Sequence record: MK327941.1
Source: Escherichia phage vB_EcoM_G37-3
Length of the DNA stretch: 64,000 nt
Reading direction: 5' to 3' (one strand)
Part shown: positions 4,004 through 64,000 of the stretch, one piece after another
Layout: every line of letters starts with the position of its first letter
Numbering within the stretch: position 1 is the first letter of the stretch
Position numbers and translations under genes: made by a program
The notes under the pieces: model-generated
What the model was told of the DNA's origin: nothing
Databases searched by the model: none
Seen by the model: the letters and a program-made list of their open reading frames with translations, nothing else

Positions 4004-4045
4004 AATAAAACACCCTTTATAAACACATAGAATTATTTAGTATTT

Positions 4046-4053
4046 TATAAATA
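4046..4053 (+). promoter_or_regulatory. T4-type late promoter motif TATAAATA upstream of gene 51
   Basis: exact TATAAATA about 20 nt upstream of the gene 51 ATG. Confidence 0.45.
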
Positions 4054-4073
4054 CCCGAAAGGGGGATTATACC

Positions 4074-47300: not shown

Positions 47301-48136
47301 TGGAAAACTCATGGTCTATTATCGTTGGTGGCACTGGAACATCTCAAGTTGTTGATAGTAATGCTATCGCTTTCGGTAAAATCAATGATGGTGGAGTCGT
47401 CGAGCATTACGCCTTTGCTATGGAACACAATGGCGACGCGACAGCATATAGAGACTTTATTGCAGGTCGTAACCTGTATGCGAAACAAGGCGGTTTATAC
47501 ATTGTTGACCAGTCTAATCCGGCAATGACTCGTTCCCCAGATGGTATGCTGAATATCGGTCACGGTGGAAGTGTTAACATCAAGGCAGGTCATCAAACGT
47601 TAACTACAGAGATCGCCGGACAGAAATATCAGATCGTCCACGCAGGAAACGCAGACGAAGTTCTTAACCGTCAGTTTGTTAAGAATGCTGGCGATACAAT
47701 GGTCGGTAAGCTGACTATGGATAATGCGCCTATTGTTTCTGTTAAGCATGAAGCTAGCGCGGCAACCGCTCCGGCAATCAGCAACATCGGTTTCTGGAAT
47801 ATGCGCGTTACTACCCAGAACATCAAAGAAACTTATCCAGAGAAGAAAAACGGTACTCTGATGCAATGGGGTACTGACGCGGACGGGCTTACCCAGCTTT
47901 GGTCCCCCGATGGTACTCATAAACATTATATCCGTTCCGGTACTGGTGGTCAATGGACCGCATGGGGTGAAATTTACACCAAACAGAATAAGCCTACCGC
48001 TCAGGAAATCGGGGCAGTAGTTGCAGAAGGTGGTTTAATGAACTCTATGACGGTTCGTGACTGGATCAAAGTTGGTAATGTTAAAATCATCGCCAATAAT
48101 CTGACTCGTACCGTAGACTTTATCTGGGAAGACTAA
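44396..48136 (+). CDS. 34: long tail fibre proximal subunit gp34
   Basis: 1246 aa; repeated (T/S)PKKL, ATQ.E motifs; synteny. Confidence 0.9.
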   Translation: MADFSQHFKATFGFDAGNEKVVNVAYADKNTSTDAVNVEFFNYHNGITQYDTTRGYDQYGTTIYQNRPYYAKEDITKPAGDFDPTKWQALRNDPRWDYIAATSGDTPLKSGDYIAADGQFANLTFSMPNKPAEGDTITVKDIGGKCGVNELSFLSSGHEFYHNGNVYNRKWYCTTPYAMNYFIFVRNRWHVYQTGTEPRGVYAQPAIDAIQMQNGDQVFRRSSLGNITLVLPKFANNGDMIQTTDLDGLTATNHVTVKVHEHAEEQSIGTSGLKEIIGKRSGHGVFIFDKPENLWRLWDGDQSVRLNPIISDTRLSPNSYVAVFGDRDVALTLPTNVEPGDRIQVSMQYMHGNQTCRIITSEEDTKILMQKNMVQFPKRSEYPFNGTDTWTGVSELSFNAANDYVPYLEFSYSEGDDGKKYWLVAHAHPIVERVDPTRKDRVGVIALATQDETNKNHEDNPSDEVAVTPKVLANKTANETRRGIARIATQAETHQDTGSSFLDDVIVTPKKLNDCVATEARRGVMEIATQHETNEGLDDTRAITPKKLEERRASEDLAGIAEIVQVGGSAATRRGEAGTGIYNINDHAKIVTPQNINEVKATETSRGVGYLATDAEVQGATESTPQDALLITTRTLTKRTATESRTGIAEIATQEETNLGQSDNHIITPKKLHTRRATETLHGLAEIATQSEFDAGRDDARISTPLKIKTFFENAQRLKVDPTQGLNLTGDLWQGITISGLDATEDTKGVAKVATTQLTDVGQDDTTIITPKKLQGKKATEGKEGIIRVGTQAETVAGTLANVAISPKNFKYVVQTEDTWKATEARRGFLKVATQENCFVGDNLQGSTQELGNYQHDGIAVTPKGLNYALANFLPKMATAQNSLKLGNVDAAKWARRDIDQTIESNYTFNKNVNVKGDLECLKSGSFETLFVTKNSTDDPSNGHLVLGERGVDGHTGITLHGTTASEGMENSWSIIVGGTGTSQVVDSNAIAFGKINDGGVVEHYAFAMEHNGDATAYRDFIAGRNLYAKQGGLYIVDQSNPAMTRSPDGMLNIGHGGSVNIKAGHQTLTTEIAGQKYQIVHAGNADEVLNRQFVKNAGDTMVGKLTMDNAPIVSVKHEASAATAPAISNIGFWNMRVTTQNIKETYPEKKNGTLMQWGTDADGLTQLWSPDGTHKHYIRSGTGGQWTAWGEIYTKQNKPTAQEIGAVVAEGGLMNSMTVRDWIKVGNVKIIANNLTRTVDFIWED

Positions 48137-48170: not shown

Positions 48171-49310
48171 ATGACACAAGAGATAGAATTACGCAACACT
48201 GGAATTAGGTTTGCGCATTTCGACGAAGACTCTGCGACATTTACCAGCATTTCAGAAAATAACTCTGTGATGTATAAGCTGGAAGTGCGCGGATCTAATG
48301 CGGATTCTACCAAACCAGCAAGAATTAGATTTAATGGAGTGGAGATCGTCGGGACTGGCTATGAGACTGGCCTAAACTTTAAAGTTTTTACTCCAACTGG
48401 ACAATTGCACGAAGAAAAGGTATTCTATGGTCGTGGTGCTGTATTGGCAATGCGTGATTATCTTTATTTGCTAAAAGGCGACTATATCATTGCGATGGCA
48501 ACGCATGGAGAATTGTTTGCAGATCCGATAAGTGATGATATATTTTCTAAGCTGGGATCTGTATCATTCCCGAATCACATTTTGTTACAGCAAATGCCTC
48601 GTGTATCCTATGCAGCAATTTATTCTACTAAAATGGGTAAAATTGTGTGCGAAGGGATGCAAGCAACGCACGGAGAAGGTCAAGATTCGTCTATACAAAT
48701 TGAGAAAGTTTATGATACTATAGACGATCTTGCAATAACAGGAACACCACAACGATTTTTAGATTATCCGGTTGAGTATGTTAGCGAAGATGCCGAACAT
48801 TTCGAGATAATACAATGGCCTCATGATGAGATCAGCGCACCACTTGAACATTTTAACATAAAGGCAGGTGACAAACTATCAATATCCTTTGAATTGTTCC
48901 GTGATAGTGCCGCAGCCGCAGCCAACGTAACAGCGCGTTTCTATCACAACTACTTCACTGATGGACAATATCAAACTGGCGTTCGTTATAATGCCAGCCA
49001 GAAAGATCAATGGGAAAAGTTTGAAACCGTCTATACCGTACCGGAAGGAGTTGATAGTGTTGCCACTGGTTGTATCAGATATCCAACCAACTCAAATGAA
49101 GGTATTGTTAAAATTAGAAACATACTAATAACGCCGATCAGTGGAGTCGTCAAAACTACTGGTCCTACTTCCTTTGGTGTTAACGGTATTAGAACAACTC
49201 ACATTCAGGATAACGGTAATTTCGATAACCCTGTTATGAGTCTTCTTAAACTACCTAGAGACAATAAACATATCACATCCAACAACTTTAAAGAGTTCGA
49301 TGTTGATTAA
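48171..49310 (+). CDS. 35: long tail fibre hinge protein gp35
   Basis: 379 aa; synteny and size. Confidence 0.8.
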   Translation: MTQEIELRNTGIRFAHFDEDSATFTSISENNSVMYKLEVRGSNADSTKPARIRFNGVEIVGTGYETGLNFKVFTPTGQLHEEKVFYGRGAVLAMRDYLYLLKGDYIIAMATHGELFADPISDDIFSKLGSVSFPNHILLQQMPRVSYAAIYSTKMGKIVCEGMQATHGEGQDSSIQIEKVYDTIDDLAITGTPQRFLDYPVEYVSEDAEHFEIIQWPHDEISAPLEHFNIKAGDKLSISFELFRDSAAAAANVTARFYHNYFTDGQYQTGVRYNASQKDQWEKFETVYTVPEGVDSVATGCIRYPTNSNEGIVKIRNILITPISGVVKTTGPTSFGVNGIRTTHIQDNGNFDNPVMSLLKLPRDNKHITSNNFKEFDVD

Positions 49311-49471: not shown

Positions 49472-49479
49472 TATAAATA
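49472..49479 (+). promoter_or_regulatory. T4-type late promoter motif TATAAATA upstream of gene 36
   Basis: exact TATAAATA about 35 nt upstream of ATG. Confidence 0.5.
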
Positions 49480-49512
49480 CTCGGAACTATAACTAATTTT
49501 TGAGGTTACTTT

Positions 49513-51003
49513 ATGGCAGATTTGAAACATGGATCTACTGTAGGCGGATCTCCCATTTGGACGCAAGGAAACTTGACGATCCAGCCAGCGGGGGATCAGC
49601 TTTTCTACAAAGGTCATAAAATCTATACCGCTTTTGATAAACCTTCGGCTGCCGATTTTGATGCTGTTAGTGCATCCGAAGGTGGCACATTTCAAAAGCA
49701 AGTTCATTTCGAGGAAGGTTTAAGCGTAGGTAGCGCATCGGCTGGAGAAACCAAAAAGAACGGGATCTTTAAAGGAAATAGTGATGCGGCTAACTTTGAT
49801 GGTGTAAGTTGGGGTTTGCATTCGTGGAAATCTATTGGTTTTGTTAATGCTCGTGATGATGTTATCATGGCTTATATTGACACTACCACAGGTGATTTTA
49901 AAACTAAAGGGACTATCGAAGGGACAACCATTAAAGACACAGGTCAACGCGTCTATAGCCCTGTTAATAAACCAACGAATAATGATTTAGATTTGGTGTC
50001 TCGTCGCGGTGATACCCTCACAGGAACATATAATTTAAACACTGTCACTGTTAAACTATCGGTTGATTCGAAATTAATTGCAAGGGAACGTGATTTAATT
50101 AATTTTGATGCGACTAAGATCTATTATGGTAACGTTCTTGATACGTTGGTCTTCCGAAGTAAAGATGAGCCTACCATTTTTGTTAATGGCAGAGAAGGTC
50201 GTTTTTATCACACCAACAATAAACCAACTAAAGCCGATGTTGGGCTAGGCAATGTCACCAATGATGCACAGGTTAAACGTGCTGGTGATATTATGGAAGG
50301 TAACTTGCAAGCACCTAGAATGTTGGCGACAAACGATCCTGCTGGTCCTAATGAATTGGTTCGTTTGAGCTACTTTGAGAGAAAATCAATGGTAGCAAAT
50401 CCAACCATCATTGGAAACGTTGATTGGAACACTCTTATTAATCGCGGTATCTATCGTGTGGAAAATGCTGGGTCAGGTACTAATAAACCGTCTGATAGCT
50501 ATTATAACGGCGTTTTGATGGTATATCGCCCAGAAGATGCGGTCGGTACTCGTCGAATTGTTCAGGTGTATTATCCTGAATCTATTGACCATCCGATGTG
50601 CTGGCGTTCTTGTTCTAATGAATCATGGACTGCATGGAACTATGTAGATCACCGTAAATTGGCTGATATTCGCTATGTTAACGTCACTGGCGATACCATG
50701 ACAGGACCGTTAACTGTTCCGGCTGCAAACGGTGTTAGAACGGCTAGAGGTGCATATAATGGTGATAACTACTATGCCGGGTTAAATAGTGCTGACGGCA
50801 CGGCTATGATTCACCGTATCAGCGATATTAAAGCCACTGAAAAATTGGGTATTACACATGATTCGAAAGCTGTTTTCGTTAAATCGCGTGGAAATACTCA
50901 AGCCACAGACCGCTATGAACTTTACCACGAAGGGCATAAACCTACCCCTGCCGAAGTTGGTGCGGTTCCACTTAATGCGGTGATTGATTTCGGTACTTTC
51001 TAA
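49513..51003 (+). CDS. 36: long tail fibre distal connector gp36 (enlarged, 496 aa)
   Basis: synteny between 35 and 37; repeated YxxxNKPT motifs. Confidence 0.7.
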   Translation: MADLKHGSTVGGSPIWTQGNLTIQPAGDQLFYKGHKIYTAFDKPSAADFDAVSASEGGTFQKQVHFEEGLSVGSASAGETKKNGIFKGNSDAANFDGVSWGLHSWKSIGFVNARDDVIMAYIDTTTGDFKTKGTIEGTTIKDTGQRVYSPVNKPTNNDLDLVSRRGDTLTGTYNLNTVTVKLSVDSKLIARERDLINFDATKIYYGNVLDTLVFRSKDEPTIFVNGREGRFYHTNNKPTKADVGLGNVTNDAQVKRAGDIMEGNLQAPRMLATNDPAGPNELVRLSYFERKSMVANPTIIGNVDWNTLINRGIYRVENAGSGTNKPSDSYYNGVLMVYRPEDAVGTRRIVQVYYPESIDHPMCWRSCSNESWTAWNYVDHRKLADIRYVNVTGDTMTGPLTVPAANGVRTARGAYNGDNYYAGLNSADGTAMIHRISDIKATEKLGITHDSKAVFVKSRGNTQATDRYELYHEGHKPTPAEVGAVPLNAVIDFGTF

Positions 51004-51007
51004 TTTT

Positions 51008-51033
51008 AGCGGGGATTCTCTCCCCGCTTTTCT
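51008..51033 (+). terminator. rho-independent terminator after gene 36
   Basis: AGCGGGGA-TTCTC-TCCCCGCT then TTTCT. Confidence 0.5.
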
Positions 51034-51073
51034 AAATAATATTATTCTAATAACCGTTTAAGGATTTTATAAA

Positions 51074-53938
51074 ATGGCAGATTTAAACAGAATCCAATTT
51101 AAACGCACTAGCACTAAAGGTCGTAAACCTGATGCTAGTACGATGTATCCGGGGGAATTGGCAATCAACCTTGCGGATCAATACATGTTTACTAAAAATG
51201 ATTCGGGGACTCTCATCAATTTAAGTTGTCCTCCGGTGTATAACCGTGACGTTATAATGGCGGGTAAGGTTAAAGGGAATGATTATATTTTAAGCAAAAC
51301 CGCTAATTATTTTGAAGACCAAACCGCGCGAGATCTTAATTATTTTGGTGCGTTTCGACCGAATAATGCTGATGGTTGGTCTAACTTGATTCTGAACATT
51401 CCTCATCCCAGCGGTAAAGCACACGGTCGCGGTTTTGAGTTCCAATATGGGTCCAGCTCACCTCAAGTTAAAACCTATGGCTTTGATAAAGATGGTAATA
51501 AGCGATTCAGCTTTCGCATGTATCACGAAGGTGATAAGCCTAGTCCGTCAGAATTAAATGTGTACAGCAAACAAGAAGTAGATCGGATGTTCCAAAAGAC
51601 ACTTGATTTTGGAACTGAGTCTGGTTGGTTTAAAATTGCTACTGTATATCTTCCGCAACACTTCGGTCGTAGTGCTAAAATTAGATTGGTTGGTGGTAAT
51701 GGCTATAATGTAGGAAAGACAGATCGATGTAATATTATTGAATTAGTGTTGCGGAATGGCAACAATGCCCCTAAAGGAATTAATATTGTTGCTTATCATC
51801 ACATTTCTGGGGGTGAAAACCAATTTTGTGCTATTAATACAAGCGACGATAATTATGATATATATGCTTATTATTTCGGACATACATCATTTGTTCTTGC
51901 TGAATATCAAGCGTCTACCGGTGTTAATTTAACTGTACTTGATCGACCTGAATATGTCGGCGAAAAACCTGTAGCTGATCATATCTATGATGCATATACA
52001 ATATACTCCTTTAACAGTTTCAGTAACCGTGGAACGTTAAATTTTGCTGGAAACCCTCAAGGCCAATATGACATTGAGCATATGAACGAACAACCGACAA
52101 ATGCTAAAAAGATGTTGCGTCGGTTTAGAAGCTCTGCTCTTTCCACTATCTGGCATGAAACCGTTGATGACCAGAATTATCGTCTTGCCACTGGCTTTAC
52201 AGATTCAGGTCAACAATTATTGCTGACAACAACCGGGTTACATGTCAAGAGATTAACATTGGATGGCGGTGCTGCGGGTGGAAATGCTGGTATTGATATT
52301 CGTCGAGGACCAAACGAAGCAAGCCATTTTAATTTTATGGATTATCGCACTGGTCAAGATGTTCGTAATGGCTGGTTTGGTTTTGGTGATTTGACGACCA
52401 AAGATTTTATTTGGTGGAACGATAACGGTCAAAACTCGATAAACTTGGTCGAAAACGGTGAATTACAGATTTCTGGCGGTAAAGGCCAGAAAATTGTAAT
52501 GAATAGCGAAGTTGCATTATCTGAAAATGCTCGTTTGGCTGTTAGAGGTGGTAATTATGGCGTGATATTCCGTAATGATGGAACGAGCTTTCATCTGCTT
52601 ACTACCGATTTAAAAGATTCTTTTGGTAGTTGGAATAATCGCAGACCGTTCAGTTATGATTTCGCCGAAGGTGGATTAGATCTAGGTGGCACAACGACCG
52701 CTCGTTGTTTACATCTGGGAATTGATGGTAGTACCCGCATCGAGGATAACTTAGTTTTCCGGGCTGGATCTCGTCAATCAATGGACTATATTGAAATGAT
52801 CCATTGGGGTAACAGTAATATCGCTCGTGACAACGTTTTGAGTATGAAAGACTCGAAAGGATTCCTTGCTGAATTTGAACGCGTGGGTGGGACTAACGGC
52901 GTTAAAACCAGATTATTTGGCGAAACCTTCACTGACGGTACATTATACCTAAATCAGATGAATAATAGCTCTGAACGATTCTCTATCAACAATTGGGGAA
53001 ATTCAGAAGTTGGACGCGCGGCAGTAATGGAGATCGGTGATTCCAAAGGTTATCACTTCTATACTGAACGTAGAACAGATAACACCGTTTTATTTGATGT
53101 AGCTGGTGCTTTGACCGTGCATGGACCTAACGGAATAACCATCAAAAACTCAACTGGTGCACGCCATATCTGGTTTAGAGATGACAGCGAATCGGAAAAG
53201 GCTGTTATCTGGGCTACAGATGAGGGTATTTTACATATTCGCAATAACCACGGTGGACAATTTAGTCATCACTTCCAGGGTGCAATGATTAAAGCGGGAG
53301 AGCGTGTTCCATATAATAGTGAATACGCTCTTATCCGTGGTGATATTTCCGGTGGTGCATGGGTAGACTGGCGAGCGCGTCCGGCTGGATTGTTGGTAGA
53401 CTGTCAGGACTCACGAAATCAAGCATATAACATTTGGAAAGCTACTCATTGGGGCGAACAGCACCTTGCGGCGATGGGTGTTCATGCTGGCGGTGGTAAT
53501 CCTCATGTTGTATTGCATGTGGGTGGGAATGATTATGCATTTGCATCTAACGGTGATTTTACTGCTGGTGCTGCTGTATATTGTAACGACGTTTATATTC
53601 GTTCTGACCGTCGTCTGAAAATTAATGTTGAAGACTACGAAGAGAATGCGGTAGATAAGGTAAATAAACTCAAAGTTAAAACCTATGATAAAGTTAAATC
53701 TCTTTCTGACCGCGAAGTTATCGGCCATGAGATTGGTATTATCGCACAGGATTTGCAAGAAGTATTACCGGAAGCTGTTAGCACTTCTAGTGTCGGATCT
53801 CAGGATAACCCAGAAGAAATTTTAACAATTTCAAACTCCGCAGTGAACGCGCTGTTAATTAAAGCGATCCAAGAAATGAGCGAAGAAAATAAAATCCTTC
53901 GTGAACGTCTTGCTGCAATTGAGGCTAAATTAGGGTAA
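51074..53938 (+). CDS. 37: long tail fibre distal subunit gp37 with C-terminal intramolecular chaperone (peptidase S74-like) domain
   Basis: 954 aa; C-terminal about 110 aa IRSDRRLKINVEDYE...IGIIAQDLQEVLPEAV...NALLIKAIQE typical of auto-cleaving fibre chaperone domains. Confidence 0.85.
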   Translation: MADLNRIQFKRTSTKGRKPDASTMYPGELAINLADQYMFTKNDSGTLINLSCPPVYNRDVIMAGKVKGNDYILSKTANYFEDQTARDLNYFGAFRPNNADGWSNLILNIPHPSGKAHGRGFEFQYGSSSPQVKTYGFDKDGNKRFSFRMYHEGDKPSPSELNVYSKQEVDRMFQKTLDFGTESGWFKIATVYLPQHFGRSAKIRLVGGNGYNVGKTDRCNIIELVLRNGNNAPKGINIVAYHHISGGENQFCAINTSDDNYDIYAYYFGHTSFVLAEYQASTGVNLTVLDRPEYVGEKPVADHIYDAYTIYSFNSFSNRGTLNFAGNPQGQYDIEHMNEQPTNAKKMLRRFRSSALSTIWHETVDDQNYRLATGFTDSGQQLLLTTTGLHVKRLTLDGGAAGGNAGIDIRRGPNEASHFNFMDYRTGQDVRNGWFGFGDLTTKDFIWWNDNGQNSINLVENGELQISGGKGQKIVMNSEVALSENARLAVRGGNYGVIFRNDGTSFHLLTTDLKDSFGSWNNRRPFSYDFAEGGLDLGGTTTARCLHLGIDGSTRIEDNLVFRAGSRQSMDYIEMIHWGNSNIARDNVLSMKDSKGFLAEFERVGGTNGVKTRLFGETFTDGTLYLNQMNNSSERFSINNWGNSEVGRAAVMEIGDSKGYHFYTERRTDNTVLFDVAGALTVHGPNGITIKNSTGARHIWFRDDSESEKAVIWATDEGILHIRNNHGGQFSHHFQGAMIKAGERVPYNSEYALIRGDISGGAWVDWRARPAGLLVDCQDSRNQAYNIWKATHWGEQHLAAMGVHAGGGNPHVVLHVGGNDYAFASNGDFTAGAAVYCNDVYIRSDRRLKINVEDYEENAVDKVNKLKVKTYDKVKSLSDREVIGHEIGIIAQDLQEVLPEAVSTSSVGSQDNPEEILTISNSAVNALLIKAIQEMSEENKILRERLAAIEAKLG

Positions 53939-53977
53939 TTGGAAAGCGGGGAGAAAATCCCCGCTAAGGATTCTTAT

Positions 53978-54274
53978 ATGGGATATTGGGTCAGTAGTGA
54001 AATTAATACTAAAATCGATGCTTTAAAATGGCATGTATTTGATATTCCTAACGGCTATGGTACTGCTCGCGCTGGCGTTGCTGTCATGCGTCATAATGCT
54101 GGTGGTGGATGGTCTGATGCACATATTAACGTAGATGGTTTGACCGTTGCTCGTCGTCGTGGTGGGTCCAATTGGGGATCTACTATAAATTCGTTTGTTC
54201 CTGCTGGCTGTACCGTCTCCTTTGGTTTAGGGGGTGAAGGTGGTGTTGAATATTTTAAATTCATGGAGTTTTAA
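53978..54274 (+). CDS. small Gly-rich protein, paralog 1 of 3 (98 aa)
   Basis: AAGGA-N7-ATG; MGYW...FDIPNGYG...GGGW; hairpin 53946..53964 just upstream. Confidence 0.6.
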   Translation: MGYWVSSEINTKIDALKWHVFDIPNGYGTARAGVAVMRHNAGGGWSDAHINVDGLTVARRRGGSNWGSTINSFVPAGCTVSFGLGGEGGVEYFKFMEF

Positions 54275-54276
54275 TT

Positions 54277-54582
54277 ATGGCTGGATGGATAAATCAAAGA
54301 ATGTCAAACGCTATTAGTATTTGGGCTAATGGTGGATATTTTGATATCCCTAACGGTTGGGTCACTGATTCATGCGGAATTGTTTTTGCTCATATGGAAG
54401 CCATTAACGGTGCTGGTGATCTTGGTTCTGAATTGGCTGTAAATGGATTGATTGAATCAGGTCATCACGCTGGTAATGCCGGAAGTTGGGGCGCTAGTTC
54501 TTTAGTTGGCGCTGGTGCTACCGTTAGCTTTACATTGGGTAAAGGTAGTTTGCATTATTTCAAATTCAGGAGAATGCACTAA
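54277..54582 (+). CDS. small Gly-rich protein, paralog 2 of 3 (101 aa)
   Basis: MAGW...FDIPNGW...; ends YFKFRRMH. Confidence 0.6.
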   Translation: MAGWINQRMSNAISIWANGGYFDIPNGWVTDSCGIVFAHMEAINGAGDLGSELAVNGLIESGHHAGNAGSWGASSLVGAGATVSFTLGKGSLHYFKFRRMH

Positions 54583-54884
54583 TGGCATTTTGGGTAGATG
54601 GCGCTTTGGGGAATAGGGCGGGTAAAGCAAATCAAGGATGGTTTGATATTCCTAACGGTTGGACAGCCGACGCTTTCGGGACTATTTCATTTTCCGCTCA
54701 TTCTTCCGGTGGTGGCGGCGGTGACTCTGAATTGTTTATTCATGGTTTTTGTGTTTCTGGAAGCCATAAGGGTCATGATTGGGGACAGATCCATTCTTGT
54801 ATTGCACCGCAAGGGGCGGTAATTACCGTTAGCACAAATAGGGGGGTCGCTCATCTTCGTTATAGACGTTTGAGCAACCGCTAA
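54582..54884 (+). CDS. small Gly-rich protein, paralog 3 of 3 (100 aa)
   Basis: AGGAG RBS; MAFW...FDIPNGW...GGGGGD. Confidence 0.6.
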   Translation: MAFWVDGALGNRAGKANQGWFDIPNGWTADAFGTISFSAHSSGGGGGDSELFIHGFCVSGSHKGHDWGQIHSCIAPQGAVITVSTNRGVAHLRYRRLSNR

Positions 54885-54939
54885 ATAAATAGAATTACGG
54901 AAAACTCCCAGGGAAGGGAACTACTAAGGAGAAACGGCT

Positions 54940-55179
54940 ATGGTCTATAATATCGTCATTGGTGCTTTGTCTAATTTCGGAATGAAACTATTGTCAAAGT
55001 TAATTAGTGAAAAGATGCTCACTAAAATTTTCTTCTATTGCGCTCGTCGTCTTGCGGCTTATACCAATACGCCAATTGATGATCGTTTTGTGGAAGAGCT
55101 TTATAAGGAGTTTAATAAAGATCAGTCAGAAGATAGCAACGAGCAAAATAAAAATAGTGATAGTCAAGTACCTAAATAA
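54940..55179 (+). CDS. hypothetical protein (79 aa)
   Basis: AAGGAG RBS; hydrophobic N-terminus, acidic C-terminus. Confidence 0.55.
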   Translation: MVYNIVIGALSNFGMKLLSKLISEKMLTKIFFYCARRLAAYTNTPIDDRFVEELYKEFNKDQSEDSNEQNKNSDSQVPK

Positions 55180-55212
55180 GAATACACTGTCATAGTTATC
55201 TTAGGGCATTAT

Positions 55213-55869
55213 ATGCAAGTTTCTGAAAAAGGGAAAGACTTTGCTATCTCAAATGTCCTGCGCGCTATTTTCACAACTAAAAGCACGGAGTTGCTCGTAC
55301 TTCGTGTTTTTGCTGCCGTCGTGTTGTCTATATTAGCATTTGTCGTTTATAGTAAAAACGAGTTATTTGCCTTGTATAAAGAGACTCGTTATGAGACTTA
55401 TGCTCACGTTCTCCAGGTAGAGAAAGACCGCAATTTTGATAATGCAGCACAGGAGCAGTTACAGATAGTTCATGTGTCGGCTAATGCCGATTTTTCTGCT
55501 GTTTTTAGTTTTCGTCCGAAAAACCTAAACTATTTTGTTGATTTGGTGGCATATGAAGGAAAGTTACCTCATACAATCGACGAAAAGAATTTAGGCGGAT
55601 TCCCTATCAATAAAACGAGTGAAGAATATCGTAGGCATCTTTTAGGTAAATCCTATTTTACCGATAAAGATTTCCAGTATATTCCATCAAGAGAAAAGAA
55701 ATTAGAGAGTATCGATATAGGGTTTATGTATTCTTGCCCTATATTCAATCTCGATAATGTCTATTCTGGTAGTATCGCCATTGCATGGAAGAATAAACCG
55801 GATATTGACATTGAGAATTTAGATACTCTTTGCAATCAATCTGCCAGAATCCTCGGAAGGATTAGATAA
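55213..55869 (+). CDS. t: holin t
   Basis: 218 aa; single N-terminal TM; LQIVHVSANADFSAVFSFRPKNLNYFVDLVAYEGKLP matches T4 holin. Confidence 0.85.
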   Translation: MQVSEKGKDFAISNVLRAIFTTKSTELLVLRVFAAVVLSILAFVVYSKNELFALYKETRYETYAHVLQVEKDRNFDNAAQEQLQIVHVSANADFSAVFSFRPKNLNYFVDLVAYEGKLPHTIDEKNLGGFPINKTSEEYRRHLLGKSYFTDKDFQYIPSREKKLESIDIGFMYSCPIFNLDNVYSGSIAIAWKNKPDIDIENLDTLCNQSARILGRIR

Positions 55870-55875
55870 CTTAAA

Positions 55876-55908
55876 GGGGAAGCCTTTCGGCCTCCCCTTC
55901 TTTTTTAT
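55876..55908. terminator. bidirectional rho-independent terminator after holin
   Basis: AGGGGAAGCC-TTTC-GGCCTCCCCT then TTCTTTTTTATT. Confidence 0.6.
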
Positions 55909-56153
55909 TGGCGCATAGAAGCCCCTGAATCACATTTTGACGCTGTATGATGAAAACATGTAGCGTACCAGTCATCGGCTTGTTTGTCTTCGTCAGAAAA
56001 CGCATAATTTCGTTGTATGCCGTTTTCTACTTTGACCAGTGCAATAGCTGTTTCTGGAAGATCAATCAATCGGACAAAATCACCATCTTCCCACTCTACA
56101 CGAGCAATATCATAGCCCATCTCAAAGTATACAATCGCTTGTTCTAATTTCAT
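55905..56153 (-). CDS. DUF2829-like (Tad2-like) small protein (82 aa)
   Basis: N-terminal FEMGYDIARVEW and C-terminal AFSDEDKQADDW resemble the DUF2829 pattern. Confidence 0.45.
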   Translation of the reverse strand: MKLEQAIVYFEMGYDIARVEWEDGDFVRLIDLPETAIALVKVENGIQRNYAFSDEDKQADDWYATCFHHTASKCDSGASMRQ

Positions 56154-56479
56154 TCTGGAAACTTCCCGTAAACATTCTCTGCTAGCTTACGTGCATCTTT
56201 TACAATATCTTTCATGTAATGACTATAATTTTTAGCTAGATCAATGATACAATCAACAAAGAAGTAATAGCGTCGCAGTGCTACCAGCTCAACATCTTCA
56301 AGATGACCATTTTCTCCAATCGCTGAAATGTGTTTAAATTCCTTTCGGATCGCGTCCATCGCTACATTAACTTCTTTTATAATATCTTTCGTATTATATG
56401 CACCTCGACTAATCAAAATTTTGGTTAGGTCTTCTGCTTTTTCGTGAAAGTTGTCAATTTCAAACTCGATCATAATCAC
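56150..56479 (-). CDS. hypothetical protein (109 aa); paralog of 56588..56920
   Basis: shared helical pattern, both end ...EN(V/I)(Y/F)GKF. Confidence 0.55.
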   Translation of the reverse strand: MIMIEFEIDNFHEKAEDLTKILISRGAYNTKDIIKEVNVAMDAIRKEFKHISAIGENGHLEDVELVALRRYYFFVDCIIDLAKNYSHYMKDIVKDARKLAENVYGKFPE

Positions 56480-56587
56480 CTCTCATAATTTCACGCTGTT
56501 GTTTCAACATTTTTTCGTGGTTTGCTAATTCTATACCTTGTAATAGCATAACCAGTGCAATTTTCAATGATTCATCATCTTTCATAA

Positions 56588-56920
56588 TCAAAATTTACCG
56601 AAAATATTCTCTGTCATAATTCTTGCTTCGTCGATTATTTTCGTCATGTTCATGGTGTAGTTATGATCATTTAGTGCCTTAATAACAACGAGCAAGGAAT
56701 CTAAAAACACTCGATACCGGGTATATTCTACGCTATTTGTGAATACCGATGTTTTCTCTACTTTATCGATCAGATAGCCTAAAGCCGATAGCGCCTCGTT
56801 TACTTCCCTTGTTACTTTATCGGCGCTAAACAACACCGGATAAAGACGCGGTGTGATTAACCGCGCTGCCTCTTTCAATTCGGTCGCTTTCCATGATTCA
56901 TATTTGTCATAGTTAAACAT
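56588..56920 (-). CDS. hypothetical protein (110 aa); paralog of 56150..56479
   Basis: see paralog. Confidence 0.55.
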   Translation of the reverse strand: MFNYDKYESWKATELKEAARLITPRLYPVLFSADKVTREVNEALSALGYLIDKVEKTSVFTNSVEYTRYRVFLDSLLVVIKALNDHNYTMNMTKIIDEARIMTENIFGKF

Positions 56921-56931
56921 TGTATAATCTC

Positions 56932-57264
56932 TTACAGATGAAAACCTGTTACGATCACCGCATCGATCATACCGCTAGGAATAAACGGTTCGCCCTCTTT
57001 TATTTCAACTTTGAATTGATGCCATTTCGCTAATACTTCTTCCGGTACACCCAGCGATTCGGCGTCTGCTTTAGTTTCATCCATAATCCAACTAGGCTGC
57101 ATGAGAGCATAGTTTACATAGTCCATTTCTTGGGTCATGTCATCAATGTTAATATATTTGCAGTTGACGCGTTTCAGAATTTCAAATTCTTTATTATCAA
57201 CCTGTACCATGTATAATTCAGTAGTTTCTGGAATCAGTTCCCACACAATCAGTACATTTTTCAT
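56932..57264 (-). CDS. hypothetical protein (110 aa)
   Basis: ORF in small-gene block. Confidence 0.55.
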   Translation of the reverse strand: MKNVLIVWELIPETTELYMVQVDNKEFEILKRVNCKYINIDDMTQEMDYVNYALMQPSWIMDETKADAESLGVPEEVLAKWHQFKVEIKEGEPFIPSGMIDAVIVTGFHL

Positions 57265-57272
57265 AGTTCACC

Positions 57273-57641
57273 TCACTTAACAAAGATTTTCTTTAATGCT
57301 TTCAGGATCGTTGCTTCCGGCGCTTCTTCCGGTGGAGGAAGCAATTCTACCACTTCCTCTTCCAACTCGATATAGTCTACCAGATATTCTACATAGAATG
57401 CAAGTGCTTCCATGAAATTAGATGCTACATCCGATTCACCACACGCGCCTACATGCATTGTATAAACATCACTGCGATCAAGTTTGTGAATACTCCCCAG
57501 ATAGTTCCGGTTATACCAGACTTCCCACACTTTCAGCTTTCCGGTTTTGGTTGATGTTTTATAATCGGTTTCGTAATGATGCAATTGACGTTGCAGATCA
57601 TTGATAATAACACATTTTTCGTAATTGTTTTGAATTTCCAT
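57273..57641 (-). CDS. hypothetical protein (122 aa)
   Basis: ORF in small-gene block. Confidence 0.55.
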   Translation of the reverse strand: MEIQNNYEKCVIINDLQRQLHHYETDYKTSTKTGKLKVWEVWYNRNYLGSIHKLDRSDVYTMHVGACGESDVASNFMEALAFYVEYLVDYIELEEEVVELLPPPEEAPEATILKALKKIFVK

Positions 57642-57651
57642 GATGTAATCC

Positions 57652-57843
57652 TCACTTATCGTTAAGAAGTTCTAAAACTTTCTGTCGTACTTTGTCAATA
57701 TTAGTTGATTCAAAAACTGTACGGTATCCCCAGCTTTGACCGTATGAGCGGTTGCAATCTCCATATCCCCATTGTTCAACCTGATAGTATTCAAGGAATG
57801 GATGCTGCCGAACTATGATACCATCGCGATTAAAAATTACCAT
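57652..57843 (-). CDS. hypothetical protein (63 aa)
   Basis: ORF. Confidence 0.5.
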   Translation of the reverse strand: MVIFNRDGIIVRQHPFLEYYQVEQWGYGDCNRSYGQSWGYRTVFESTNIDKVRQKVLELLNDK

Positions 57844-57866
57844 AATATAATCCTCACGTCAACAAC

Positions 57867-58154
57867 TTATTTTCGGTTGTGGTCACGATATGTTTTAAAA
57901 TATCCCTCGTACCACGGTAAAACATCTGGATTTTTACCACTATACAGACCTTTAACCATCATGTCAATAAGACCGTCCGGTGTTTGATAATTACCAGCTT
58001 TTATAAGCTCTCTGATTAAAATTTCCCTGTATATGTCTTTCGGATCTTCGTAATCAACTTGTATCGTGGTTGTAGTCTCATTCAATTTGGTTTCTGGAGT
58101 ATCTTGCATCGCCTTCCACCAATCTTTTGTAATCTTCATGTTATTGAATTGCAT
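57867..58154 (-). CDS. hypothetical protein (95 aa)
   Basis: ORF. Confidence 0.55.
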   Translation of the reverse strand: MQFNNMKITKDWWKAMQDTPETKLNETTTTIQVDYEDPKDIYREILIRELIKAGNYQTPDGLIDMMVKGLYSGKNPDVLPWYEGYFKTYRDHNRK

Positions 58155-58165
58155 AATTTAACCTC

Positions 58166-58924
58166 TTACTTGCAAACGTATTGATCTACATCAATTGCGC
58201 CACCGAATGTAGGATGACGTTTTTCGAATCGAATAGTTCCGTCGTTTGGTTCGAAAACGGAGTATTCATATAGATCTTTCTTGCCAACATTCTTATAAAA
58301 CCCGCCTTTAGTCATAACGGTTTCTTGTACGTTTGCTTTGTGTACGTTGTATTCATCAATGTATACAAAATCAACCATCTTCCCATTTTTAATTGTTACT
58401 TTAAGATCTCCTGGTTGGTTTCCATATTTTGCATACAGTGGCGCTTCTTTAATTTTTGTGGAAATTCCATCTTTCATACTCCACTCATAACGAACGGTGC
58501 ATTGATAGGTAAAAGTTTCGACCTTCGGTTCTTCCACCACTTTTTCTTCCTGTTTCGGTTGTTCTTCTTCAACCTTCGCAGAAGTCTCTGAATCGCTTTC
58601 TGACGCGGTTTCTTCTTTAGGTAATACATTCATCAAGTTTTGGATTTGAGCGTTGTATACAGCCTCCAGTGGCTGAATCTGCCCGATATTGATCATTGTA
58701 TCACGAACAGTTTTATTCCAGTTTCGTTGCTCTTGTTTCAGAGACGGATCAATCTTAACAGCCTTAACATACACCTCATGAAGTTTAGAGTCCAGTGCGG
58801 AGATAGACTCATTAGCACAAATAAACTTCTCTGATTTGGTAGTAGCTTTAGCGCAATCGAAGGACGCAGCGTTAGCACCGAAAGCAGTAGCAGAAAGAAC
58901 GATAGCAGCGATAATGTTTTTCAT
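58166..58924 (-). CDS. secreted protein with LprI / DUF1311-like N-terminal domain (252 aa)
   Basis: signal peptide MKNIIAAIVLSATAFGANA; CAKATTKSEKFIC...LDSKL...Y pattern. Confidence 0.6.
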   Translation of the reverse strand: MKNIIAAIVLSATAFGANAASFDCAKATTKSEKFICANESISALDSKLHEVYVKAVKIDPSLKQEQRNWNKTVRDTMINIGQIQPLEAVYNAQIQNLMNVLPKEETASESDSETSAKVEEEQPKQEEKVVEEPKVETFTYQCTVRYEWSMKDGISTKIKEAPLYAKYGNQPGDLKVTIKNGKMVDFVYIDEYNVHKANVQETVMTKGGFYKNVGKKDLYEYSVFEPNDGTIRFEKRHPTFGGAIDVDQYVCK

Positions 58925-58958
58925 AATATATTCCTCAGTGTTTTGTCTTGATGTGAGT

Positions 58959-58987
58959 ATGTTACTACTCCCTTAATCCGGTGTCAA
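58959..58987 (-). promoter_or_regulatory. early promoter cassette (PeSL-like)
   Basis: TTGACA, 17-nt spacer, TAACAT within GGGAGTAGTAACATACTCAC. Confidence 0.5.
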
Positions 58988-58994
58988 CTACTTT

Positions 58995-59150
58995 TTAAAT
59001 TTCTTCTACAGTAAAGTCTTCAATGTTGTTGTGCTCGGAGAACGTTGCCAGACCAGCATTCCATGCATCATCCTCAGAGAAGAATACGCCGTAACGTTCA
59101 TATCCTTTAGAGCCTTCAAATTTAACCATTAATTTGTGAGTATGTTTCAT
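58995..59150 (-). CDS. small protein (51 aa)
   Basis: true start MKHTHK with AAGGAG; the track ORF N-terminus MLTGDRRSPI is translated promoter sequence. Confidence 0.5.
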   Translation of the reverse strand: MKHTHKLMVKFEGSKGYERYGVFFSEDDAWNAGLATFSEHNNIEDFTVEEI

Positions 59151-59181
59151 TTTGATTCTCCTTCGTTGTCTTGACGAGTTT

Positions 59182-59210
59182 AGTATAGGGGATCGGCGAT
59201 CCCCTGTCAA
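59182..59210 (-). promoter_or_regulatory. early promoter cassette (PeSL-like, palindromic spacer)
   Basis: TTGACA-GGGGATCGCCGATCCCC-TATACT. Confidence 0.6.
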
Positions 59211-59220
59211 CAACTATTTT

Positions 59221-59433
59221 TTAATTTTTACCCGCTCGTGCATTAATACGCATTTTCTGCATAGCCATGATCTGGCTTACTGCTTCTTCTTTACGTTCTT
59301 GCGTGATAACGTGACCAGATTCCGCAAACTCTCCAGCAACTTCTTCTACGATCTCGCGAACTTGAGAACGTCCAAAGATGCGGTTTCCTTCGTAGCTCAT
59401 AAATTCAGTCACTACTTGCTCAATAGATTTCAT
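59221..59433 (-). CDS. hypothetical protein (70 aa)
   Basis: start MKSIEQ with AAGGAG. Confidence 0.55.
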   Translation of the reverse strand: MKSIEQVVTEFMSYEGNRIFGRSQVREIVEEVAGEFAESGHVITQERKEEAVSQIMAMQKMRINARAGKN

Positions 59434-59462
59434 GTGATTCTCCTTTCGTTTGGTATGGGAGT

Positions 59463-59491
59463 ATAATACTACTCCCATTATTCAGTGTCAA
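59463..59491 (-). promoter_or_regulatory. early promoter cassette (PeSL-like)
   Basis: TTGACA, 17-nt spacer, TATTAT within GGGAGTAGTATTATACTCCC. Confidence 0.55.
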
Positions 59492-59497
59492 TAGATT

Positions 59498-59704
59498 TTA
59501 TTCGATTATTTCAAATTTTGCTACCGGATCACCGTTTCGTTTGGTTGCAGTAAGTTGTTGTTTGTCAAAGTAAAACCAAATATAGTCACCATGAACTACA
59601 TCAAATGTGTTTCCGCTATTGTCCGTGAATACATCAACATCATAATCACACCCGACACCAAAGCTATAATTGATGTGATCGGTTTCAATGCAACGTACTT
59701 TCAT
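59498..59704 (-). CDS. hypothetical protein (68 aa); paralog of 30448..30666
   Basis: shared VAKFE C-terminus. Confidence 0.55.
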   Translation of the reverse strand: MKVRCIETDHINYSFGVGCDYDVDVFTDNSGNTFDVVHGDYIWFYFDKQQLTATKRNGDPVAKFEIIE

Positions 59705-59775
59705 TTTTTGAATCTCCTTTTTGTTTCACTGTGTGTATTATGCAATGCTGGATTATGGAAGTCAAACAACTTTTC

Positions 59776-59803
59776 AAATAAAAAAGCCGACCACAAGGAT
59801 CGG
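59776..59803 (-). terminator. rho-independent terminator
   Basis: AGCCGA-TCCTTGTGG-TCGGCT then TTTTTTATTT on minus strand. Confidence 0.5.
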
Positions 59804-59815
59804 CTTAATAATCAG

Positions 59816-60211
59816 TTACTTACTAAATTTCTTTTTGGCTTCGTCTACTGCATGAGATGCCAGTACCGCCGCCGCATGTGCACTTTTATCTGTGTTGCAG
59901 AGAACACCCAGATAAACATCACGCCAAAGTTTAATCATCTCGTAGATCATATCAATATCATTTTCTTGTTTGTTGGCGATGCTATTCGTCGTTATCTGGT
60001 AAGGTAACGGCTTGATCTGTACTGGTTCCGTCATCGGGCTAATCGGTTTCGGATCAGTCATAATAGGTGCTGTTGTGGGTGGTGTTTTCCATACGCCATT
60101 ATTCCACGGTTTAATCGTTGTGTCGTAAAGTTTATAAGGATTTTTGTCTTGGTCAACCATCCATGCATGATGAGTACCCAAACCATTTGAAGTGATGCGT
60201 CGTTCAGTCAT
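59816..60211 (-). CDS. hypothetical protein (131 aa)
   Basis: ORF. Confidence 0.55.
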   Translation of the reverse strand: MTERRITSNGLGTHHAWMVDQDKNPYKLYDTTIKPWNNGVWKTPPTTAPIMTDPKPISPMTEPVQIKPLPYQITTNSIANKQENDIDMIYEMIKLWRDVYLGVLCNTDKSAHAAAVLASHAVDEAKKKFSK

Positions 60212-60214
60212 AAT

Positions 60215-60418
60215 TTATTTCCTCTCTGAAAATTCTTTCATCAAGCTGTCGATCTTTGCTCTGTGTTCTGGCGTGTTTGTCATCTCTGCTAATTTGCTCA
60301 GAGATTCACTGGTGATCCGGTTGGATTCTTCCAGTGTTTCAACGACAATTGGAACAATCTTTTTATTGTTGTACAGAAATGCAATATAACCGCCTTCTGG
60401 ATATTCTTTCATAATCAA
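60215..60418 (-). CDS. hypothetical protein (67 aa)
   Basis: ORF coupled to gene 52. Confidence 0.5.
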   Translation of the reverse strand: MIMKEYPEGGYIAFLYNNKKIVPIVVETLEESNRITSESLSKLAEMTNTPEHRAKIDSLMKEFSERK

Positions 60419-61776
60419 CCCTTCTTAAGTTCTTTAAGATCTTTCTTATATTCCTTCATTGCGGTCGTCTTTGTCCAATACTCATATTCACTATGATGTT
60501 TCTCGGCATCTTTGACCAGTCGATCATACTCTTCTTGAGTAACGCTATACAATGGCATAGAAACTAGCTTATCGGCGTATGGACGCAGTTTTTCATGTCC
60601 ATTGATGGATTGCATTACCTCGGCCTTTTTCTTGCCCTGTAGCTCGATTTCGCCCTTAATTACGAGATCGATAAATTCGGCTTTAGCCATTGCATAATTG
60701 TATGCTTCCAGCGTTTCCGCTTGCATCAATTCAATGCGTTTATCGACATACCCCAATCGGATTTCGACGAATCGACGGACCAGTTCGCTCGCTTTCTCGA
60801 ATACTTCTACTAAACCACGTTCATTAACCACTACGATATTCTGGGCTACTAACTGCGTTAGTTTAAAATCCTTCATGATTTGCTCATGTCGAGCGGATTC
60901 ATCTTCGCTTTTGAAATAATCGCGTTTCAGTGTTACTTCAAATCTGAATCCGTCCTTAGAGCAACGGTCATTATACGATACAATCAGATCTTTTTCTTCC
61001 AGTGCATCCAGTACCGCTACATATTCTTCACGGTCGAACTTATAAGGAACTTCTGATATTGTCAGTTTAGTCTTGCCGTTTAGTTCATATGTACCCTCAA
61101 GAATCACACCATCGCGATCATCTCGCGGGATAACTTTACCCGTGAATTTTGGGAATTGAACACTAGGTTCTTTATCCAGTTTTCCGACAAGTGCTAGCTC
61201 TGTGCATTCAATGAGGCTTTCCAGTGAATGCGGTAAAATGTCAGTTTTATACCCTGTAGCAATACCACTAATACCATTAGCCAATACCATTGGCACAACT
61301 GGCAAGTAGAACGCTGGCGGGATGTGTTCCAGATCTTCGTGCTTAGGTGCGCAATTCATATCTTTATAGATTTTAAAGAAGTTTTCATGCACACGAGCAA
61401 AGATATAACGTGCTGCACCTGCTTTCTGGACTAAACGCGATCCGAAGTTACCTTGACCGTCAAGCAGTGGAGTATTATTGCTCCATGTATTCGCCATTAG
61501 TGATCCGGCTTCTACGGCATTAGTTTCCCCGTGGTGATACCCCAACTCAGCAACACCAGACCCAATATCTGCCATCTTACGGAATTTCTTACGGTCGCCT
61601 TTACTCTTTTGAAGTGCACATTCCATAACAAAGCGTTGCACTGGTTTAAGCCCATCTACCAATTGAGGAATCCCGCGTTCCTCGGCAGAATAGATCGCAT
61701 ATTCCTTAGCTTCATTATGTACAATGCTTTCAAGGCTACGGTAAGTAACTGATTTATTCATCTTCACCTCATACAC
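60415..61776 (-). CDS. 52: DNA topoisomerase II medium subunit gp52
   Basis: 453 aa; GyrA-like N-terminus (LKPVQRF). Confidence 0.85.
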   Translation of the reverse strand: MYEVKMNKSVTYRSLESIVHNEAKEYAIYSAEERGIPQLVDGLKPVQRFVMECALQKSKGDRKKFRKMADIGSGVAELGYHHGETNAVEAGSLMANTWSNNTPLLDGQGNFGSRLVQKAGAARYIFARVHENFFKIYKDMNCAPKHEDLEHIPPAFYLPVVPMVLANGISGIATGYKTDILPHSLESLIECTELALVGKLDKEPSVQFPKFTGKVIPRDDRDGVILEGTYELNGKTKLTISEVPYKFDREEYVAVLDALEEKDLIVSYNDRCSKDGFRFEVTLKRDYFKSEDESARHEQIMKDFKLTQLVAQNIVVVNERGLVEVFEKASELVRRFVEIRLGYVDKRIELMQAETLEAYNYAMAKAEFIDLVIKGEIELQGKKKAEVMQSINGHEKLRPYADKLVSMPLYSVTQEEYDRLVKDAEKHHSEYEYWTKTTAMKEYKKDLKELKKG

Positions 61777-62131
61777 GCTTACAAATCACATTCTTTACTT
61801 TATCAGATTTATCAGCCCAATCCAATAGCCATTTTAACGGAAGGATTGACACAATAAACGGGGCAGCAATCAAAGCAAACATGATACACCTGATAATCAG
61901 GAAAACGCAAGTGACAAAACTAGCGATAGTGATCCCGACAAAACAAAATACCATAGAAAACAGAGTAATGATATAGAAAGGCCAGAATACCCACTCCCGC
62001 ATCTTAACGCCTTTGTATTCTCTGAATTGCTTAAAATCTACAAACAACTCTCGGATAGACGCGTACAGGACCGAAAAATCATCTTTCATTGCTCTGAATG
62101 AGCAATCTTCTATTTTAGAATGACCTAGCAT
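61769..62131 (-). CDS. membrane protein (120 aa)
   Basis: two or three TM segments. Confidence 0.55.
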   Translation of the reverse strand: MLGHSKIEDCSFRAMKDDFSVLYASIRELFVDFKQFREYKGVKMREWVFWPFYIITLFSMVFCFVGITIASFVTCVFLIIRCIMFALIAAPFIVSILPLKWLLDWADKSDKVKNVICKRV

Positions 62132-62133
62132 TA

Positions 62134-62427
62134 TTAACCGCCTTTCATCATTGATACTGGAATTGTTTTCTGATTTGTGTATAACTGGCCTACTTCAATT
62201 TTTTCTTGAATCACCACGACGTTACAATATCCACTGTCTTTAAGTTTTCTGATAATAACTCGCTTTTGTTCGTCGGTGATAGGATTGACTGTTCTCACCA
62301 ATTCACCGCAAATAATAGCACCATCTTTACAATTACCAGTAACTTTCATGCTACGACCGTGAACAACAACCACGTCACCGTAAATCACATTTTCGTCGTC
62401 GTATTTGGTAATAACCGTGACCGTCAT
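62134..62427 (-). CDS. hypothetical protein (97 aa)
   Basis: ORF. Confidence 0.5.
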   Translation of the reverse strand: MTVTVITKYDDENVIYGDVVVVHGRSMKVTGNCKDGAIICGELVRTVNPITDEQKRVIIRKLKDSGYCNVVVIQEKIEVGQLYTNQKTIPVSMMKGG

Positions 62428-62443
62428 AATGTATTCCCTCTAA

Positions 62444-62470
62444 GAAAGGCCGCGCAAAGCGGCCTATGTT
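62444..62470. terminator. terminator-like hairpin
   Basis: AGGCCGC-GCAAA-GCGGCCT. Confidence 0.45.
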
Positions 62471-62472
62471 GA

Positions 62473-62799
62473 TTATTGTTCTACAGTATAACCGTTGTTT
62501 TCAAGCCATGCAATAACAATCTTTTCACCAATTTCATCGAGCATTTCATCAGAGCCATATTCTTTGATGAAAATCGATGGATCATTATTGCTTACTACGT
62601 GCTGGATCACAACATGTTCAGGAATTGCGTCTAGTAGTTCGCTATGATCATACTCATTAACGATATCTTCAACACTAACATTATTAACCAAATCAACATC
62701 ATCCATAGTCACAGTAACGCGACCGGACGGACGCAATGAATATTGGCTACTTTCAACTTCAACATGTGCACTTTCGCAAGTAACTTTCATATCAACCAT
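62473..62799 (-). CDS. hypothetical acidic protein (108 aa)
   Basis: ORF. Confidence 0.5.
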   Translation of the reverse strand: MVDMKVTCESAHVEVESSQYSLRPSGRVTVTMDDVDLVNNVSVEDIVNEYDHSELLDAIPEHVVIQHVVSNNDPSIFIKEYGSDEMLDEIGEKIVIAWLENNGYTVEQ

Positions 62800-62813
62800 A
62801 ATTAATTCCTCTG

Positions 62814-63815: not shown

Positions 63816-63857
63816 TCCTCTATTAGTTGGGCGACTATCGCCGCCCGATTCACATCA

Positions 63858-63989
63858 TTATTTTGCTTCGACAACCTTGCGGATTGTGCGGTCTGATACA
63901 TTATAGATTCGTGCCAGTTCGCCTTTAGTCAAACCGCGAGCGTATTGTTTACGGATGGTTTCTTTCTGGATGGCGGTCAGTTTAGTCAT
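63858..63989 (-). CDS. small HTH protein (43 aa), or the C-terminal end of a longer gene (rIIA) running off the window
   Basis: GAGGTGATATT-ATG; ...GLTKGELARIYNVSDRTIRKVVEAK resembles rIIB N-terminal HTH; frame stays open to window end. Confidence 0.35.
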   Translation of the reverse strand: MTKLTAIQKETIRKQYARGLTKGELARIYNVSDRTIRKVVEAK

Positions 63990-64000
63990 AATATCACCTC

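Follow-up and report, generated by a model that had tools for sequence, protein, structure and literature searches.

The adhesin gp38 is the standard host-range determinant used in predicting and re-engineering the specificity of T-even phages. In phages that possess it, the exposed tip of the distal fibre subunit gp37 has three symmetry-related hydrophobic pockets; in phage S16, whose gp37 is the gp38 partner with a characterised structure, gp38 forms a three-helix bundle that inserts three apical Trp residues, one every 120 degrees, into equivalent hydrophobic pockets that lie basally on the processed gp37 trimer (PMC6851490). The S16-type cleavage and gp38-docking site of gp37 is DVYIR^SD (PMC7917993). 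In RB49 and Phi1 the gp38 gene has a displaced position, close to 45 kb (PMC3157838). The stretch analysed here, 64,000 nucleotides (nt) of Escherichia phage vB_EcoM_G37-3 (MK327941.1; the window in what follows), comes from the genome of a Krischvirus (RB49-like, 'pseudo-T-even') and carries, directly after gene 37, three tandem paralogous genes for proteins of about 100 amino acids (aa), which we call A, B and C, or collectively the trio.

We favour, by a modest degree of belief, the view that the three trio chains together form a knob, which attaches to the gp37 tip after processing and serves as the adhesin in place of gp38. According to the literature on related fibres, gp37 would first trimerise, assisted by the S74 chaperone at its own C-terminus; this chaperone would then cleave itself off after the ..DVYIR sequence and expose a flat trimeric tip. 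A, B and C, to judge from their sequences and from AlphaFold2 models of the monomers, would each supply an N-terminal helix with a large hydrophobic head residue and a jelly-roll domain. They would assemble, most likely as 1:1:1, into a pseudo-threefold knob whose three helices plug into the gp37 tip and whose distal loops bind the host receptor. Within this scheme we infer the docking on gp37, the stoichiometry of the heterotrimer, the presence of the proteins in the virion and the binding of a receptor. The initial annotation of the window had suggested a role with the fibre tip, such as that of alternative adhesin or receptor-specificity modules. The first part of that suggestion gains strong comparative support from the occurrence of the same tips with gp38 elsewhere, the mutual exclusivity of trio and gp38, swaps in both directions and the linkage to S74 fibres, whereas the word 'alternative' fits the data less well.

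The trio at the gp38 position

The trio is located between gene 37 and an ORF252-like gene and the holin, in the slot that classically holds gp38 in other Krischvirus genomes and in those of Tequatrovirus and Mosigvirus. A junction probe spanning the displaced RB49-type gp38 locus matched 58 Krischvirus records. Of these, 44 show the locus occupied, 12 show it clearly empty, and phiS and FL04 gave a partial match; both of the latter have gp38 after gene 37. Among the 12 with an empty locus, G5211 and G2494 have an adhesin annotated after gene 37, FL15 and FL20 have gp38 near the holin (PMC12032242), and a classical gp38 was confirmed in kvi and MIZ4. MIZ5, LF73P4 and KMB43 probably carry gp38 as well, given that they share the same match pattern; Skers was left out of the gp38 check. 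The other two, G2248 and UPWr_E1, have an intact trio instead of gp38, and a search of all but 529 base pairs (bp) of the UPWr_E1 genome did not detect gp38 (best tblastn E=0.7, against 1e-158 for the KFS-EC control). Every Krischvirus resolved by the probe has either gp38 or an intact trio, never both. G2248 and UPWr_E1 also share an extra gene of about 714 aa beside rI.-1 (L020 8894-11038 and L027 5689-7836, respectively), where Phi1 has a 129-nt open reading frame (ORF). This gene was considered as an alternative receptor-binding protein and set aside, its only match being a weak one to Hoc-like head decoration proteins (phrog_1149, E=4e-11).

Replacement has left traces in both directions. 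In KFS-EC the displaced RB49-type gp38 is present (L021 7142-7918) and the trio is decayed: in the remnant (L002 3394-3877) a 463-bp deletion joins A to C, corresponding to window positions 54245 to 54708, and is followed by a frameshift. The deletion arose when the GG(E)GG stretch in A recombined with the GGGGGD stretch in C. Conversely, in an Escherichia coli prophage of the trio-bearing family, in strain ETEC4085 (L037, chromosome 2746294-2756491; 3278-5214), an imported segment with 85-93% nucleotide identity to FL04 and kvi stands where A, B and half of C (its 5' part) would be. The segment encodes a fibre tip with its chaperone, gp38 and the initial codons of the ORF252-like gene, and what remains of C is fused to 'MVYNIVIGA'. 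Scars of this kind gave rise to two chimeric ORFs (P0031 and P0040), in which 'MVYNIVIGA' is joined to the C-terminal part of C.

The fibre that precedes the trio is of a kind that elsewhere carries gp38. In the window gp37 the C-terminal intramolecular chaperone (IMC) of the Peptidase_S74 family is preceded by a Ser cleavage site, ..DVYIR|SD, at residues 839-845, and by analogy with what the literature describes for S16 and T2 the chaperone is predicted to be autocleaved and released, exposing the tip. A Gp34_trimer domain (Pfam) spans residues 428-528. The protein is a mosaic, its first ~70 residues being of Krischvirus type and near to those of Phi1. An E. coli siphovirus-type prophage (L006) has a fibre with 85% identity to residues 71-954, and the distal ~340 aa, with the IMC, share 90-94% identity with the gp37 proteins of Tequatrovirus vB_SsoM_113 and Mosigvirus ESh27; in both of these phages the gene after gp37 encodes a classical T2-type gp38 of 260 aa. 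To judge by these identities, lytic and temperate phages have recently exchanged fibre modules. The trio of G2248 sits behind another gp37 tip, which has 62-68% identity to the gp37 of many Tequatrovirus phages and 41% to that of S16, and again belongs to a class partnered by gp38. The D[VI]YIR|SD motif is retained by both tip classes, and a hidden Markov model of the IMC built here matches every trio-associated fibre.

These fibres also bear on the possibility that the trio consists of non-virion assembly factors, which would fold or trim the S74 fibre or free its chaperone and then be discarded in the manner of T4 gp38 or Tfa. The place downstream of a fibre gene is the usual one for a fibre chaperone, and the trio is linked to the S74 domain, not to a single tip sequence. 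Nevertheless, vB_SsoM_113 and ESh27 make near-identical gp37 tips and IMCs with no trio present, and S74 chaperones are by definition intramolecular and sufficient. Pfam, PHROG and NCBIfam reveal no similarity of the trio to any chaperone family, and the fold predicted for it is a knob-type jelly roll. Taken together, these points make a role in assembly quite improbable.

Linkage to S74 fibres and extent of the family

Outside the window the family was studied at 25 other loci (L001, L002, L004, L006-L014, L028-L036 and L038-L042) that fall into six sequence lineages. In 25 of the 25 it begins 20-50 nt after a fibre gene ending in an S74 chaperone, and everywhere there are three copies in the order A-B-C, except in the KFS-EC remnant, in L033 and in two loci where the third copy is cut by the contig end. 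L033, an IMG/VR prophage (5695-5908), has a truncated paralog B and is a second case of trio decay. The fibres themselves are of several kinds, in myo-, sipho- and podovirus-type settings: the Krischvirus gp37; a fibre of 1040-1228 aa in E. coli and Salmonella prophages with lambda-type portal, tape-measure, distal-tail and J-like tip genes; a fibre of 615 aa whose N-terminal domain is Phage_T7_tail; and those of three more metagenomic lineages. Two of the loci have unusual surroundings. In L006 (3541-4374 and 8962-9432) the fibre and trio are inserted between two genes matching major-tail-protein profiles (277 and 156 aa), an unusual placement of a fibre gene for a siphovirus-type tail operon. 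In L041 (1375-4083) another fibre-like gene, encoding 902 aa (tail fibre PHROGs, E=3e-40), comes after the trio, and this phage may have two fibre systems.

It is conceivable that the three genes merely travel in a recombination-prone fibre module and encode host-directed or lysis-associated jelly-roll proteins unrelated to the fibre, comparable to XepA of PBSX or YomS of SPbeta. In the prophages and the T7-type contig, however, the trio adjoins the fibre and lies away from lysis genes, and its distribution complementary to gp38 would be left unexplained. The sequences contain neither a signal peptide nor a membrane segment, and PADLOC gives no match. We therefore hold this explanation to be very improbable. 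A receptor-blocking or superinfection-exclusion lipoprotein was likewise considered and rejected, the signal peptide and lipobox being absent in every member.

The family is rare and lacks recognisable relatives. Searches of Pfam, PHROGs, NCBIfam and PADLOC returned no credible match (none at E<=1 in Pfam), a profile search of the PDB returned only repeat-driven 'Pizza' artefacts, and a search for homology to an enzyme family, which the initial annotation had named as telling against a fibre-tip role, found none. A profile search of 5.8 billion proteins recovered 41 clusters from E. coli, Shigella, Salmonella or Logan/ENA assemblies, all of whose source names are 'hypothetical', and 1.84 billion representatives, searched exhaustively with a HMMER profile, gave 20 matches, about 14 of them real proteins of ~100 aa. 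Among 50,697 phage records the trio occurs only in G2248 and UPWr_E1, with the remnant in KFS-EC; by megablast, window positions 53000-56000 match 126 phage records, mainly Krischvirus, each with a query coverage of <=71%. Matches were found in 24 of 5,426 complete E. coli genomes, all of them chromosomal; 22 extend over the whole trio, the best with 98.9% DNA identity to the window, and every one of these full-length matches is annotated as three hypothetical proteins. IMG/VR contributed nine near-identical prophage contigs only, and no trio locus was found in the GTDB species-representative genomes scanned. The literature, searched within the accessible library for the trio, its three carrier phages and C1q-like heterotrimeric fibre tips, yielded no description, so that the trio is apparently an undescribed protein family.

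Across the six lineages, which are only 20-40% identical to each other, the three orthogroups A, B and C remain recognisable. They differ in their C-termini, and one aligned C-terminal column holds Glu in A and Arg in B in all six lineages. Given that the orthogroups are recognisable at such divergence, and that the ratio of nonsynonymous to synonymous substitution rates (dN/dS) against orthologs is 0.09-0.33, the triplication is old, with all three copies retained. The trio has two allele classes; that of G2248 belongs to the class other than that of the window, with 75-89% identity per paralog.

A rival reading, which takes up the alternative modules of the initial annotation, is that each paralog forms its own homotrimer, such that fibres tipped with A3, B3 or C3 would be mixed on one virion and confer three specificities. 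The evidence from the gp38 slot counts equally for this arrangement, and C1q/TNF-like domains, which the predicted fold may resemble, are commonly homotrimeric. RB49-like phages are moreover known for broad host ranges (PMC9569957). Independent adhesins would, on the other hand, be expected to be gained, lost and shuffled singly, whereas the trio is translationally coupled and has exactly three copies in a fixed order in six lineages; no intact locus with one, two or four copies was seen. The invariant copy number and order, the translational coupling, the C-termini specific to anciently distinct orthogroups and the Glu/Arg reversal between A and B all favour a 1:1:1 heterotrimer, and a set of separate alternative adhesins is in our view unlikely.

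Organisation of the trio and the fibre operon

The presence of three tandem small paralogs in the gp38 position, as first annotated, is borne out by the ORFs, by the occupied slot and by pairwise BLASTP comparisons of A, B and C (E 3e-5 to 1e-14, identity 24-40%). The F-D-I-P-N-G motif noted at that time is invariant in all three, and their glycine richness is likewise real, at 17% compared with 7.4% in the long ORFs of the window. The dN/dS range given above, within which paralog A has values of 0.24-0.32, is low and thus marks A, B and C as genuine coding genes; they are related significantly as paralogs and subject to purifying selection. The coordinates of the trio and its surroundings are collected in Table 1.

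Table 1. Features of the long-tail-fibre operon and the trio region in the window
Feature	Position	Strand	Description
gp34	44396-48136		Long-tail-fibre operon
gp35	48171-49310		Long-tail-fibre operon
T4-type late promoter motif TATAAATA	49472-49479	+	Before gene 36; closest one 5' of the trio
gp36	49513-51003		Long-tail-fibre operon
gp37	51074-53938	+	Long tail fibre distal subunit; PHROG 1699, E=4e-164
gp37, mature part	51074-53602	+	Residues 1-843, ending ..NDVYIR before the predicted autocleavage site R843|S844
gp37, C-terminal IMC (Peptidase_S74)	53603-53938	+	Pfam PF13884, E=9e-15, residues 844-902
Hairpin	53945-53965	+	8-bp stem, -16.2 kcal/mol, z=-3.5
Paralog A	53978-54274	+	98 aa, MGYW..; orthogroup C-terminus F-x-E-[FLM]
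Paralog B	54277-54582	+	101 aa, MAGW..; orthogroup C-terminus [FY]-x-R-x
Paralog C	54582-54884	+	100 aa, MAFW..; orthogroup C-terminus usually basic
Conserved ORF	54940-55179		79 aa; phrog_402; named Dc5/ORF252 in RB49 and Phi1
Holin t	55213-55869		Downstream of the trio

The ATG of gene A lies 40 nt beyond the stop of gene 37 (53938) and is preceded at a distance of 7 nt by an AAGGA Shine-Dalgarno sequence. A TTG start at 53939, given in the ORF list, was dropped in favour of this ATG (53978), which is the better start because of the AAGGA upstream of it, because a hairpin fills the upstream stretch, and because the orthologs all begin with MGYW or MAYW. A and B are separated by 2 nt, and the stop of B overlaps the start of C (TAATG).

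The T4-type late promoter motif has four matches in the window against 6.6 expected, which is not above chance, and no match falls within 49480-64000. As the nearest motif precedes gene 36, the trio is probably transcribed late, on a fibre transcript together with genes 36-37. The hairpin follows the stop codon of gp37 and precedes the ribosome-binding site of gene A. G2248 as well as prophages of E. coli and Salmonella have nearly the same one, and hairpins of different sequence occupy the same place in L012 (~1957-1980), L038 (~1828-1850) and L040 (~1507-1522). A canonical intrinsic terminator was rejected for it, the T-run being missing; it may serve in attenuation, damping the expression of the trio relative to gp37, in mRNA processing or in mRNA stability. 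Farther downstream, every Krischvirus genome examined keeps the 79-aa ORF ahead of the holin, irrespective of what the adhesin slot before it contains.

Predicted fold and comparison with known systems

AlphaFold2 models of B and C (predicted local distance difference test scores of 86.9 and 86.6, respectively) show an N-terminal helix of lower confidence, at residues 2-17 in B and 2-12 in C, followed by a confidently modelled 8-stranded beta sandwich. The trio proteins are accordingly predicted to combine a helix bearing Trp4 with a small jelly roll, probably of C1q/TNF-like type. Trp4 is invariant in 31 of 31 aligned enterobacterial members. As each protein has one such helix, three chains would provide the threefold tip of gp37 with three prongs. 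We put forward, as a tentative and more specific form of the favoured reading, an obligate 1:1:1 C1q-like knob whose three N-terminal prongs, by analogy with gp38, might occupy the same pockets that gp38 fills with three Trp residues; we regard this version as possible rather than probable. If it is correct, the trio would be a non-homologous, pseudo-symmetric answer to the docking problem of gp38, with up to three different receptor-binding faces per fibre, and portable among myo-, sipho- and podovirus fibres.

Several observations weigh against an adhesin knob that replaces gp38. In the distant lineages only B keeps its Trp, whereas A and C have L, M, Y, Q or N; and a comparison of the trio N-terminal helices with the gp38 attachment helices (Smith-Waterman, 2000 shuffles) gave a non-significant p of ~0.3, so that the resemblance is kept as an analogy. 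The linkage to fibres could derive partly from co-transfer in recombination modules. The displaced gp38 locus lies outside the 64-kb window, and the absence of gp38 pertains to relatives (genome-wide in UPWr_E1, at both loci in G2248) and not to the window phage. Finally, the differences between the allele classes are scattered along the proteins and not limited to obvious hypervariable loops.

The last of these points would suit a tip cap or adaptor, in which the trio plugs the gp38-docking pockets and stabilises or protects the tip, while lateral gp37 surfaces, or else other fibres, bind the receptor. Such a cap would follow the same docking logic as the adhesin knob. The substitutions between alleles are under purifying selection and unlike the hypervariable loops typical of gp38, and the G2248-like allele occurs with two very different gp37 distal regions, those of L006 and G2248. 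Yet the element that the trio replaces is the receptor-binding element on the same tips; the two allele classes, only 75% identical, are found on an identical tip, as expected of a specificity element; and a knob of three times 80 residues is bigger than a plug requires. A low probability thus attaches to the cap as well.

An adhesin role for the trio would matter in several ways. Schemes based on gp38 would label genomes with an intact trio and no gp38 as adhesin-less. The trio, if it is an adhesin, would be a second, unrelated family for the job of gp38, probably built of three different chains, which would be unusual for phage receptor-binding proteins. A cassette of tip, chaperone and adhesin would then be traded among lytic T-even phages, temperate siphophages and T7-like phages, and three 100-aa chains would offer a small modular scaffold for host-range engineering.

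Among the described systems with which the trio may be compared, the assembly chaperones (T4 gp38 and the Tfa proteins of lambda, Mu and P2) are likewise small and encoded directly after the distal fibre gene. They show no homology to the trio in Pfam, PHROGs or NCBIfam, and the partner fibre of the trio already has its own IMC. In terms of the predicted fold, the closest group may be that of the C1q/TNF-like trimeric knobs, including the gC1q heterotrimer of C1q A/B/C, C1QL1, the NC1 domains of collagen VIII and X, BclA and the C1q-like C-terminal knobs of phage fibres; no C1q or TNF sequence profile in Pfam matches the trio at E<=1.

The gp38 adhesins of T2, T6, S16 and RB49 type (PDB 6F45) share with the trio a separate gene, the same slot, the same class of gp37 partner (S74 with D[VI]YIR|SD), Trp-headed N-terminal helices and exchange as a cassette with the fibre tip. 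They do not share its ancestry as far as profiles can tell: comparison with the gp38 families, a check proposed with the first annotation, was negative, hhalign giving a probability of 1.2% for the two family alignments and neither Pfam nor PHROGs a gp38 match at E<=1. The trio proteins are indeed much smaller, as had been remarked, with three chains of ~100 aa as opposed to one of ~260 aa. The single gp38 chain attaches through three helices with three apical Trp residues, whereas each trio protein has one helix and one Trp4. The fold of gp38 is a beta-helix with a polyglycine-II sandwich built of glycine-rich motifs and hypervariable segments, in contrast to the 8-stranded jelly roll predicted for the trio, in which the Gly runs are short loops (e.g. 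SSGGGGGD) rather than arrays of such elements. Unlike gp38 in this comparison, the trio is also found on siphovirus-type prophage fibres and on T7-type fibres.

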